Of a stretch of 64,000 bases of DNA, positions 9,406-56,013 are shown piece by piece; position 1 is the first letter of the stretch; every line of letters begins with the position of its first letter. The notes under the pieces were generated by a model, which saw nothing but the letters and a program-made list of their open reading frames with translations, was not told the origin of the DNA and made no database searches. The DNA comes from Octopus vulgaris. Lineage: Eukaryota. Made by a program: the position numbers and the translations under genes. The stretch is taken from assembly GCA_951406725.2 (NCBI GenBank), contig OX597815.1, positions 115,630,001 to 115,694,000 of the forward strand, in the 5' to 3' direction.

Positions 9406-9452
9406 GTCATGCTGAAGATTTGTAAAAATACCGAAATAGTGCTCTGCGTGAT
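9406..9452 (+). ncRNA. Degenerate hammerhead-like motif
   Basis: gtcatg CTGAAGA tttgta-aaaa-tacc GAAA tagtgct ctg cgtgat. Stem I gtcatg/cgtgat pairs (with G:U); the cleavage triplet is non-canonical. Confidence 0.4.
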
Positions 9453-9689
9453 TGCTACTAACTTGAAATTAACCAAGAGAAAAGATATGTTTCATGAAAT
9501 ACACAGAGATAAATAAGAAATTCTAAAAGTTTTTCATGTGTGTAGCATTTTTATTGAAATTGAAACTGTGAGTTGGTCTTGTAACTCAAGTTTCACACCA
9601 CTACAATCTTCAAGCAAAGATTTTATTGATGTGAAAATAATTGTGGTCTTAACCATCAACTTTAAAGCAATATATTTCAGATTAGAGTA

Positions 9690-10085
9690 AATTGTATTCA
9701 CTGAAATAATAGCTATTATAATTTACACAACTTTTACTAACAAGAAGCAAACCTGTCAATTCTGGTGGCATAGAATTCTGGAATCTTAAAATCAAAAAGA
9801 ACTCTTCCAATGTATTTTAAGTTGCTGGTTCATAGTTGAAAACATTATTTTGCAAGAAGTCATTGAAATACTTAAAAGACTGATAGTTTGTCAGAGAGAG
9901 ATCTGGGAAGTAAGTCAGGTGAGATAGAGTCTCATAGCCCAGGCAATTCAATTTCTTCAATCATTTTTGAAAATAGTGGTTAGGCACTGCTATGGAAAAG
10001 TATTGGTCCTCTTTGACTGTCAATGTTGGACATAATATTGCAGGTTTTGATTCATTTTATTGATTTCTTGGCAATACTTCTCTTT
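9690..10085 (-). mobile_element. Decayed mariner transposase fragment (C-terminal catalytic region)
   Basis: The minus strand translates, with stops and frameshifts, to EKYCQEINKM...LGYETLSHLTYFPDLSLTNYQSFKYFNDFLQ, matching the mariner HPxYSPDLxPxDYxxF motif. Confidence 0.75.
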
Positions 10086-10559
10086 GAATGTTTGCAAGAA
10101 TAAATATAGCTTTTAAGTATAAAACATTTATTTATTTGCTAACTTAAAATGATAACTGAGGAAAATTTCTGAGAGTGGCCTTATATAGTTAAGTGGTGGT
10201 TAATTTACTTAAAAGCATGAGCCAAAAAGAAATTTCAATTAATTAACTTAAATTATTAATTCTTGTCAAGAAAAACAAGGGAAACAACTTCAAATCCATA
10301 TTATTTAATTTAGTTAAATTGGAGCATGCAATAGAAAGTAAGTTTGATCTTGGATACAATTTTAGATTCTTTAAACTGAGCCTGCTTGAGTTATGTGGTC
10401 TTTCACTCAAACATAACATTCTGTTGTGGTAAAATAATCTGACCAAGATTAAATATGTGACCACTCAGTTTATTACAAACTCAAAATATATAAGTACTTG
10501 ATCTAACTAAGGTTTGTCTCAAGCTAAAATGCACCTAATCAAAAATAAGATATTCCACA

Positions 10560-52500: not shown

Positions 52501-55500
52501 ATGCATAGTGGGGGGGGGCACAAGTGGAGGGAAGCTGTCAACAGCAGATATGATAGGGTGATGAGAATAGTAGCAGATAAGAGATTGTGTTAAATAAGAT
52601 AATGACAATTCTAAGATGTATCTCAACGGATATATATATATATATATAACTGGAGGCACAGAAAAGGACAATCAATTTTAAATGAAGTTGGAAGAGTTGA
52701 TATTGATAATAAAGGATGGATTTTTAAAGGAAGTGGTTCCAGTGAGAGGGAGAGGTAACTGGTTACAGAAAGGAGGATAAAATATGTGTATATTCTGCTC
52801 TCAAATGGCTACAGCTGTTGAATAGTGCTATTGTTAGAAAAGAAGAGGATTGGGTGTGAGGAAGACAAGAGATAAGGAAGGCTTGAAGGGAACAGATTGG
52901 GTACAGGTCGCAGGATACAGTGAGTGTATAGAAATTAACATAATGTTTTTAGGGCCTCACTTTCATCAATATGGGTGGATCTTCTTGAGCACAGAAAATC
53001 TAAGACCAGTCCCTCTCATCATTTTATATACACTTATCTATGCTAGTATGGATTATATACAGACATACACTCTCACTTATACACATATACATTCATTCAT
53101 TCATTCATTTCTTTTTTCTTTGTGACATTAGCTCTAGTGAGGTTGCCTTGTATTCTGCAAGACTTAACAGTCCTCACTGTTATACATTGACAGAAGATGA
53201 ACTAGGCTGAGAAGGTGCAAGAAATGAGAGTATGATGAGAGAAACAAATCATTTAGAGAGAATAATGGAAGAGAAGTAGTAATGGTACCTATATATTTTT
53301 GGTAAACAAGAGATAGTGGGTGATGGATAGCAGCTGAGATGGATTATGGTAAGAGAGAGTAATGAAAGAGAGAGAGGAAGTGATGGATGATGTATATTGG
53401 ATCTCAACACATTTGGTGCAATCATTGTTATACAGACTTTATGATGGGAGACAAAGGTAGCATTGCAAAGATGGTATTCAAGGAAGTTTAAATACAGAGA
53501 TCCAATGCCATCCATCATTATTAGCATGGATTGGACAAGCCTCTTTTTGGCCATACTCTATGTCCAGATGCCCTTCCTGATGCCAACTCAATATTTTTCA
53601 AGTAAGGTAGTTTATCCCACTGGTCTTTGCACTCTAAACCACTGAGCTATGTGATATAAATACACACCACTGCAGGCCAAGAATATCAATTCAAAGACTT
53701 GCACATGTGCATGTGTATGCACACGCACAGAAGAAGATGGGTTTCTACACAGTTTCAGCTGCCAAAGTTCACTAAAAGACTTTTGTCAAACCAAGGCTAT
53801 AGTAGAAGACACTTGCTCAAGATGCCAAGTAGTGGTATTGAACATGAAAAATGCGGCTGGGGAGCAAACTTCTTAACCATATCTATGCCTATTGATGTAT
53901 AAGCTGTAGTAAAAATAGAATGAGTTCTATAAATGCATGTGCTACAGTAAATCATTCTATTAATCTGAGAAAAGAATAACAATGAAAAAAAATTAATGCT
54001 GGTGTAAGTTCAATATTTATCTTTCATAAAGGAGTTGTTTTCATTTCATTCCTTTTTGTTACTCCATCTTTTAAAATGACATTTGATCTTTGTTAAACAG
54101 GAATAAGAAATTTGTTTCTTCTTAATCCAATTAAGGTCTTCATTTATGTTGTAGTTATGGTGTTTTAAACAATAATAGATCTTCCAGATATATTGTATAT
54201 TATTTTCTTTGTATATATGTTACTGTGACTCTCTCTCATTCTCTCTCTCTCTCTCTCTCTCTCTCTCTCTTTCTTTCTCTCTCTCTCTCTTTCTTTCTCT
54301 CTCTCTCTCTCTGTATGTACATGTATTTATGTGTGTGTGTTTGCATGTGTGTATATATATTTCGTATTATGCTAAGAAGCAATGCATGTTACTAGAATTT
54401 TAGACATGAGTCAAATATAACAAACAACTCCAAATCGTTGATAGAGTATATGCATGAGTGGAGTCAAGACCAGCTAGTTTGTAGTGGCATTGAGTCATAT
54501 TAGTTGTTATAATGAAGTCAAACCATATTTCAAAATGCTTTAACTGAGAAAGGTTTACATAATGGAAGCATTTCCTATTATATATTATGCAAACTTGAAA
54601 CACACATATCAAATGATTTCAAAATCATTTAATCATAGTTCATCATCATCATCGTCGTCGTTTAACGTCTGCTTTCCATGCTGGCATGGGTTGGACAGTT
54701 TGACTGAGGGCTGGCAAGCCAGAAGGCTGCACCAGGCTCCAACCTGATCTGGCGAGGTTTCTACGGCTGGATGCCCTTCCTAACACCAACCACTCTGAGA
54801 ATGTAGTGGATGCTTTTTGCATGCCATTGGCACAAGGGCCAGTCAGGCAGTACTGGCATTGACCATGCTCAAATGGTGCTTTTTACATGCCATTGGCACA
54901 GGAGCCAGTCAGGCAGTACTGGTAAGAGAAAGAAATAGAGAATGTGAAACAGAGAGCACACAATTACTCATACAATGTAGGTTATATAAAGAACATCCTG
55001 TAGATCCACTGTTGTTTAAAATGCTAAAAGTATAACATATACAAAACTTTAATTGAATAAAAGGAAAAAAGATGATCATTTTCTACATCCTTAGATATAA
55101 AATCATGCATGTATGTATATCTGTGTGTGTCTCTGTTTAGTTGAGACATGATAGCTAAGAGAGTAAAATGCTTTTCATTGACTAGATGATACAAAGACCT
55201 TACATCTCTGTTTGTTTCATGTTGTCTTGCTTTTAACAGATTCCACTTCTACTTCACAATTCAGTAGGCAATTGAAACTATCTCCAACCAGCTATTAAAA
55301 AGCAATTCTTCCCACAAAAACCACTCCATACGTGAAAATGGATGTAAAATAGCAAATATACTCAGTACAGACAGACACACACACACTCACACACACACAC
55401 ACACACACATACATATATATATATGGAAGGTGGACATTAAACAATGATGAAGATGATAAATATATATATATACATGAGATACATTTTACTGATTATATCA

Positions 55501-55977
55501 ATTATACAATGTGTTGATATTGTCGCTATTATTTAGTTCTATGTGAATGCTGATCAAGCAAACCTTTGATTAAAGCCATTTCAACTATGACTGTCCTTAC
55601 TATATAGTATTTCCATAACTACATTATCAGATCTGTTTTTCAGAGATAGTAGAGTGAGTTATGAAGAAGTATTGACTGCTACTTCTAACAATCCAAACTT
55701 GTAGAGATTTCTCTTTTACTCATTTACTTATTTACTCATTGTTATATATATATATATATATATATATATATATATATTTCTGTATTTGGGAGTATAAATA
55801 GATGTACTTTCCTTATTGTATGTGTGTATGTATATGTGTGTGTGTGTATGTGTATATACATACATACGTGTGTGTAGTCAAATCAAATAACTGAACATTA
55901 AAAATAACAATAAGAAAAAAGACAACAAGAGGACATGCACATGGAATGTATTAGTTTGATGTTTGGTAAGAAGAGAG

Positions 55978-56013
55978 TTTTTGACATTTCAAGCATAGGT
56001 TTTCATCAGAAAG
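55978..56013 (-). ncRNA. Minimal hammerhead-like motif of Penelope type (decayed)
   Basis: Minus strand ttt CTGATGA aaacctatgctt GAAA t GTC aaa, one CpG-type change from GAAACGTC. Stem I is ttt/aaa. It lies in a ~190-bp unit between (TG)n tracts. Confidence 0.55.

Follow-up and report, generated by a model that had tools for sequence, protein, structure and literature searches.

Does a hairpin that carries a ribozyme move as a unit, or is it left behind by the integration of an element of a known kind? The question is raised by a stretch of 64,000 nucleotides of Octopus vulgaris DNA (contig OX597815.1, positions 115,630,001 to 115,694,000; hereafter the window), in which an earlier note, made from the letters alone, saw different hammerhead ribozyme motifs in short fold-back elements and took these for a group of non-autonomous retroelements. 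The elements (families B and C, units A and G, fold-backs D and E and motif F; Table 1) are quite probably short repeat copies, decayed and of several unrelated kinds, some standing singly and others as mirror pairs set head to head in AT microsatellites, with a minimal type I hammerhead motif close to one end. They are likely what integration of the Penelope-like kind leaves behind, namely 3' ends truncated on the 5' side. The hairpin itself is probably not a mobile unit, and integration by Penelope-like elements (PLEs) would account for the geometry without a new class.

The motifs and the four fold-backs could all be relocated where the note had placed them. By core position 3, the motifs lie at 9412, 12124, 12920, 20874 and 34617 on the forward strand and at 12392, 21137, 38619 and 56009 on the reverse strand; the mirror copy of the 12124 core, at 13181 on the reverse strand, was missing from its list. 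A strict descriptor (set at 0/3/3) finds no intact hammerhead in the window, which bears out the view that every copy is decayed. Whether the motifs exceed chance depends on the descriptor. A scored scan gives four sites at 14 or above (20874, 21137, 12392 and 12920) against 0.13 per block-shuffled window; none of 60 shuffles reached four, and the reversed sequence gave one. Allowing one core mismatch with stem I of at least 3 and stem II of at least 2, six sites are found (12124, 13181, 20874, 21137, 56009 and 5579) against 0.28, and intact boxes without stems occur at three (12124, 13181 and 38619), again against 0.28; with neither descriptor did any of 60 shuffles equal the observed count. 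With a looser descriptor (80 shuffles), the sites that stand out on their own are just 20874, where 0.05 are expected per window, and 21137, where 0.09 are. Chance sites that score as well or better number, per window, 9 for 38619, 13 for 12124, 20 for 56009 and 31 for 34617, and 9412 scores solely through a different, long parse (0.23). The excess over shuffled sequence thus holds by the scored and tighter descriptors, while A, D, E and G are singly within noise by the looser one.

The hammerheads of families B and C are established, and those of A (12124), E (38619) and G (56009) are jointly plausible only. F and D are doubtful: 9412 has no NUH triplet in the parse first proposed, and 34617 has a 59-nt gap, AAAAC in place of GAAAC, no stem I and no G12. 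The count of at least six different hammerheads was accordingly overstated, with two established, three plausible and two doubtful. Rfam gave 51 matches at E<=1 over the whole window, none of them a hammerhead, and in four local scans the lone Hammerhead_3 match (38590-38644) reached 13 bits against a cut-off of 48.5, so that no match is credible. Folding z-scores run from -1.3 to +0.6 in all nine motifs; free energy does not part them from shuffles. A further decayed hammerhead-like motif, absent from the note, lies at 54539-54613 on the forward strand, with a CTGAGA core, a 14-bp stem II, GAAAC and a 5-bp stem I with one mismatch. Its loop resembles a CpG-decayed palindrome and near-direct repeats flank both sides; it is at noise level by the loose descriptor and ranks sixth in the scored scan. 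Weak hammerhead-like words at 28341-28380 (forward; 10-bp hairpin, two core mismatches) and 5579 (reverse; one mismatch, 3-bp stem I) are probably chance.

The fold-backs are real. Inverted-repeat scans return 23 rows above the filter, where each of 15 shuffles gives 0-2, and element E, below that filter, is nevertheless found at E 3.5e-7. All fold-backs are arranged head to head, with the sense of the ribozyme pointing outward. The inverted arm starts about 15 nt before the predicted cut in C, about 10 nt before it in E and 8 nt after it in D, and the loose ends of contigs put the start of the left arm of C near 20729 rather than 20792; arm alignments show no inverted arm at 9412 (F) or 56009 (G). 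The inverted arm of C extends about 57-60 nt beyond the other arm, to a (TA)n run at 20722-20728, and E has 42 nt and then (TA)n past one arm only; B has no such one-sided tail (contig data at 20939-21032 were skipped as repeat). A palindrome is present at the inverted junction at 12561-12636, and the three short fold-backs have spacers instead. Runs of (TA)n or (CA)n lie at one or both ends of A, of both B loci (12 and 21 kb), of C, E and G; D is flanked by TA-rich sequence and F by none. The proposed bias for such microsatellites is supported. No convincing target duplication was found at the 11 boundary sets tried. The traits of miniature inverted-repeat transposable elements (MITEs), namely fixed terminal inverted repeats, uniform length and a fixed duplication, are not those of these elements, which have unequal arms, a single-armed copy and variable junctions.

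Families B and C could be followed in contigs of four public runs (4 of 24 listed, from organisms A, B, C and E, letters unrelated to the element names) that were placed on 20570-21600 at 80% likeness; the comparison rests on the rows listed, 40 out of 55 for differences, 15 out of 59 for joints and 24 out of 1366 for loose ends. In family C, the window copy has U at position 8, and G makes up 96-97% of the depth there in all four runs, so that the family core is intact and the objection that a consensus would lack it fails for C. Further changes in the motif, among the rows listed, are at N7 (23-34%) and in loop II; from the inverted arm come a stem I of 4 bp and a stem III that is palindromic. 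Stems I (GUCU/AGAC) and II of family B are both mended by the majority letters, and its stem III forms a perfect palindrome of 8 nt. The majority core is CCGAUGA (U4C), and all three window copies have C at position 4. This position (21136) is not among the differences listed, the weakest of which stands at <=23%, whence C4 is taken as the majority state; the further rows may include a minority with U4, the state expected from CpG decay. At the site that G10.1-C11.1 usually takes, B moreover carries an A-purine opposition and a G-U pair. Summed depth relative to the adjacent exon, a rough ratio and not a copy number, is about 3,500-13,000x for B and 170-1,030x for C. In organism E the depth of B stays high over the ribozyme-bearing part, 21060-21164, and drops in most of the other bins to a few hundreds or thousands, a pattern which suggests that no other part of the element is conserved as well as the motif. 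A compensatory change in stem I of the 21-kb copy was considered and rejected, being due to a 3-nt deletion and CpG decay. For B (with U4C) and C the core is conserved at family level, and a minimal type I hammerhead lies near the 3' end.

Several observations concern the surroundings of C. Depth at 20745-20794 is well above that of the C ribozyme in three of the four runs; 83-144 contigs per run leave at 20794 into other sequence, and some rejoin at the 3' end of the ribozyme (20794-20919 joints, among those listed). A larger sister subfamily seems to share the terminus and ribozyme of C, with a different spacer. By the family loose-end consensus, a T-run ending in AG (20843-20853) lies about 20 nt upstream of the C core, like a 3' splice site; in Drosophila Penelope an intron ends at stem I. 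The long arm is interrupted at approximately 20932-20969 by a tail of about 40 nt ending in (GAT)n that resembles the 3' end of a common repeat at 41513-41568 and 54640-54670. Pattern scans for B, C and G gave no match in viral contigs, metagenome contigs or prokaryote genomes, as expected for animal DNA.

In the two families the hairpin does not look constant. At 12 kb family B forms a palindrome; at 21 kb it is present as one 5'-truncated arm. In C, five of the 15 joints listed link the inverted arm, at 20752, 20761, 20791, 20794 and 20838, to the long arm, and each joint is represented by one contig per run at a depth of 32-75, against 35-53 for the neighbouring single-copy exon. Three contigs of run X10, among 32 pieces listed, stop or start at the window's own pivot, and 47 X10 contigs continue upstream of 20859; long-arm starts further upstream are not visible because the window copy begins at 20843. 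A distinct mobile unit of 150-1100 bp, as the note had proposed, is at odds with the single-armed B copy, with C pivots at different points and single-copy depth, and with the published insertion pattern of PLEs.

The two arms of the 12-kb palindrome abut at 12598/12599 with no spacer. Between the B arms 17 of 281 sites differ, and between the A copies 3 of 86; comparing either B arm with the 21-kb copy gives 28-29 differences in about 275. The lower divergences within the palindrome indicate that B, the microsatellites and A were copied in a single duplication event. It may be that the source RNA extended into its own flanking sequence, or that a snap-back copy was carried on into the target. 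Since the 21-kb copy adjoins C and not A, unit A is not a fixed part of B. The left B arm is internally about 110 nt shorter than the right arm, which contains two 78-bp tandem units (12627-12780). Unit A has a 3-bp stem I and a 7-bp closing stem, and either its 15.2-16.2 pair or its register is faulty; its reading as a SINE (short interspersed nuclear element) fragment was rejected, as, of the 11 SINE copies compared, a single one matched (over 26 nt) better than every one of 200 shuffles and the other ten did not. At 13213-13841 a 5'-truncated LINE (long interspersed nuclear element) fragment meets the right end of the palindrome through about 6 nt common to both, and the terminal AGCT is for this reason not safe as a target duplication.

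The Penelope-like origin of the elements, already entertained in the earlier note, is supported by the head-to-head arms, the variable junctions, the minimal hammerheads and the microsatellite targets. We infer its mechanism from published work. The element protein would nick AT-rich DNA on both strands, and reverse transcription would begin close to the RNA's 3' end at each nick. Both copies would abort early and be joined head to head, or one copy would snap back on itself, which would produce the spacer-less palindrome at 12598/12599. The ribozyme would be retained in truncated copies, since its distance from the 3' end is only some 60-190 nt. In the parent RNA, cleavage would take place in a dimer, by way of the palindromic stem III, or with assistance from the protein; minimal motifs of the PLE type are reported, in the available part of the literature, to cut weakly and as dimers only. 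No activity is predicted for the window copies, and their parents may be non-autonomous; non-autonomous PLEs are already known.

A number of points weigh against this reading. No reverse transcriptase or GIY-YIG remnant was found, with no relevant Pfam match in 150 stop-free frames of the window (from 162 that passed the filter, out of 663 of at least 40 aa; truncated copies are not expected to keep an open reading frame, ORF), and so no family is tied to a PLE protein; membership of the PLEs in the strict sense is suggested by architecture. A direct-repeat (partial tandem) pair of pseudo-long terminal repeats (pLTRs), expected only at longer copies, is absent for every unit in the window. Family B departs from the PLE consensus in U4C and in its missing G10.1-C11.1 pair, and the cores of A, D, E, F and G are known from the window copies alone. 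The one-sided extension of C is about 57-60 nt and not 30-40, which may be damage. Exact short words of B, C, G, A, D and E are absent from the supplement of PMC8557442, in a search limited by line breaks and cut runs. As to the variable junctions, four of the five C joints are marked as not known between their two sides, four have sides of just 28-45 nt, and joints at 80% likeness are often produced by repeats; the C pivot is crossed by one X10 contig (record 12, with 14 differences and 4 gaps), and the long-arm starts of C cluster at 20853-20862, just 5' of the ribozyme, so that the junctions are not wholly random.

These last two observations, together with the pivots near the motif in the three short fold-backs and the lack of an ORF among the frames scanned, are what a class of distinct non-autonomous fold-back retroelements could draw on, in which the hairpin with its ribozyme is the unit transcribed and re-inserted. 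Such a class is nonetheless very unlikely, given that family B is also single-armed, that C shows five different junctions among the 15 joints listed, each at single-copy depth, and that the architecture is expected from PLE integration; judging from the fold of E and the arm alignments, the inverted arm would moreover pair with the 3' half of the ribozyme and hide it. We also give little credence to solo monomers of non-LTR retrozymes, spread via small circular RNAs cut from tandem arrays elsewhere. The type I hammerheads, the lack of an ORF, the AT-richness and the self-contained 83-nt motif of unit A with its closing stem would suit them, and the sources, as far as available, describe monomer copies as common and retrozymes as derived from PLE pLTRs. 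Yet a motif-bearing unit is found in none of the 66 tandem-repeat rows and no unit stands head to tail in the window; the ends of B and C at (TA)n are defined and their 5' ends ragged, and the motifs belong with the minimal hammerheads of PLEs, not with the canonical type of retrozymes as the available parts of those sources define it.

MITEs or DNA-repair palindromes that carry hammerhead-like words by chance are the likely explanation for F, perhaps for D, possibly for A, E and G, and not for B and C; for the locus as a whole they are improbable. The noise level of A, D, E and G under the loose descriptor, other fold-backs in the window without any motif and the lack of a credible Rfam match all fit chance words, but chance would hardly restore precisely the catalytic G8 in family C or give 6 and 3 sites against 0.28 by the tighter descriptors, and unequal arms with variable junctions are unlike terminal inverted repeats. 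The reading as truncated PLE-type 3' ends is thus preferred.

Table 1. Features of the window, with positions counted from its first nucleotide
Feature	Position	Strand	Description
Host gene, UNC80-like, exons	6828..58174	+	Mollusc protein mapping; all elements sit between mapped exons
Motif F, doubtful hammerhead-like	9403..9451	+	Core 9412-9418, GAAA 9433-9436; no NUH, inverted arm or microsatellite flank
1.14-kb palindrome	12079..13218		(TA)n, unit A, mixed microsatellites and B arm, mirrored at B/B
Unit A, plausible type I hammerhead	12110..12192	+	Intact CUGAAGA (12124) and GAAAC (12162)
Family B left arm	12270..12598	-	Core 12392-12386 (U4C and G5A decay), GUA ends 12349
Spacer-less palindrome at B-arm head-to-head junction	12561..12636		36/36 aligned nt, one gap
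Family B right arm	12599..13038	+	Core 12920-12926 (U4C), GUA 12961-12963, stem I damaged
Unit A mirror copy	13113..13195	-	Core 13181; 83/86 aligned nt identical
Family C inverted arm	20729..20842	-	Begins within stem II, holds hammerhead 3' half
Family C long arm	20843..20992	+	Minimal type I hammerhead 20870-20922, core 20874; this copy G8U (family G8)
Family B single-armed, 5'-truncated copy	21022..21344	-	Between two (TA)n runs; hammerhead 21141-21090, core 21137-21131 (U4C)
Fold-back D	34571..34734	+	31-bp arms, 90%; doubtful hammerhead, CUGAAGA 34617, AAAAC 34683, no stem I
Fold-back E	38542..38689	-	Intact boxes, core 38619-38613, GUC ends 38586, weak stems
Unit G, single-armed	55880..56050 (ends approximate)	-	Between microsatellites; minimal hammerhead core 56009-56003

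The elements are probably intronic within a UNC80-like gene. Mollusc proteins map ten exon blocks on the forward strand; the exon at 27053-27397 matches mollusc proteins, one of them Mytilus UNC80 (46%, protein comparison). Hammerhead motifs on the sense strand all carry a lesion in the core or stem I, as do most antisense ones, and unit G, an antisense copy, has a 3-bp stem I, a CpG-type C15.2U decay and a decayed stem II. The window has a GC content of 33%, is rich in microsatellites and has a longest open frame of 159 aa. A LINE fragment lies at 38795, for which six of ten matches are named Octopus bimaculoides, with up to 91% identity. Short elements with terminal inverted repeats of 25-43 nt and no hammerhead occupy 26144-26290 and 42021-42254; the former, where a weak Rfam mir-548 match falls, we take to resemble a MITE of the Tc1/mariner type. 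A 260-bp fold-back at 44455-44718, has 96-nt arms at 84% and short internal repeats, and the scans picked up no hammerhead motif there.

The main bearing is on annotation: a short fold-back in an octopus intron can be a Penelope-type 3' end and not a MITE, and it is the hammerhead that reveals it. The high-copy U4C family is the sole mildly novel detail; truncated pairs set head to head, palindromes at junctions, (TA)n targets and minimal hammerheads paired on opposite strands have all been published for PLE insertions. If the U4C motif of B is functional, a core variant at thousands of sites is missed by CUGANGA descriptors; if it is not, a family can amplify with a crippled ribozyme, matching the dispensability of cleavage for PAc in vitro (see below). 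Tentatively, and with rather low confidence, B and C could be protein-less riders on octopus Penelope elements, in thousands and hundreds of copies, respectively, B with a fixed non-canonical hammerhead (C4 and an extra A-purine opposition below stem II) that has stayed the best-conserved part across species and can still cleave, either in dimeric form or aided by the element protein. Were this so, octopus would offer a natural, high-copy test of what the PLE hammerhead is for. Long intronic hairpins would also be candidate substrates for adenosine-to-inosine editing in a probably neuronal gene, and the palindrome at 12079-13218 could give about 500 bp of double-stranded RNA in the UNC80-like pre-mRNA as one such substrate.

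The closest known systems are the endonuclease-bearing (EN+) PLEs, namely Penelope/Poseidon, Neptune, Nematis and Hydra (Craig et al. 2021, PMC8557442; Arkhipova et al. 2013, PMC3846280). The available part of the former describes an inverted 5'-truncated copy beside a pLTR, a one-sided tail of 30-40 bp and microsatellite targets that hide duplications, and its table gives (TA)n for octopus Naiad elements; in both, head to head is the usual arrangement of Penelope (Fig. 2 of the former), with junction palindromes and (TA)n targets lacking clear duplications. Shared with the elements described here are 5' truncation, the inverted truncated neighbour head to head, the junction palindrome, microsatellite targets without clear duplications and a hammerhead near the 3' end. 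EN+ PLEs differ in having an ORF and a direct-repeat pLTR, of which the window has none; the extension of C exceeds 30-40 nt, and the 12-kb palindrome additionally duplicates an unrelated unit and microsatellites. Inverted pLTRs are listed as a curation hallmark in the available part of Goubert et al. 2022. The part at hand of Bonar et al. 2026 reports 31 recently active Penelope-like families in O. vulgaris, ribozymes not being mentioned in its main text, and our search of the open literature found no paper on octopus PLE hammerheads or on a U4C PLE family.

Dual minimal hammerhead ribozymes on opposite strands, 100-700 bp apart and probably truncated PLEs, were described by Cervera & De la Pena 2014 (PMC4209133). 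The minimal type I hammerheads of that study share with ours CUGANGA with an extra nucleotide after A9, a long stem II, a stem I of 3-5 bp and a palindromic loop 3, and they are mostly solo and sometimes paired on opposite strands, as here. Family B differs from them in C at position 4, the extra A-purine opposition and the G-U closing pair, and family C in a stem II closed by U-U/A-U and not G10.1-C11.1. Neither CCGAUGA, nor an octopus entry, nor the exact motif words were found in the one supplement file of PMC4209133 searched, within the limits set by line breaks and cut runs. Non-LTR retrozymes (PMC7229834; 10.64898/2026.07.22.740005), going by the available parts of both sources, are likewise non-coding, carry a type I hammerhead and are likely derived from PLEs, but are defined by head-to-tail tandems of 150-450 bp and circular RNA, and the window has no such tandems.

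Biochemically, the nearest parallel is the Anolis carolinensis Poseidon protein PAc, which, according to the accessible part of Frangieh et al. 2024 (PMC11167929), nicks and extends both target strands, with AT-rich targets, internal start sites, a protein-assisted ribozyme and insertion in vitro without cleavage. The ORF of PAc starts at stem II, whereas frames starting there in B and C stop within about 15 codons. For the U4C core itself there is a precedent in a viroid hammerhead, cited in the available part of Perreault et al. 2011 (PMC3088659), which is much slower in vitro and sufficient in vivo; what is a rare variant in the viroid is the majority state of a high-copy animal repeat in family B.

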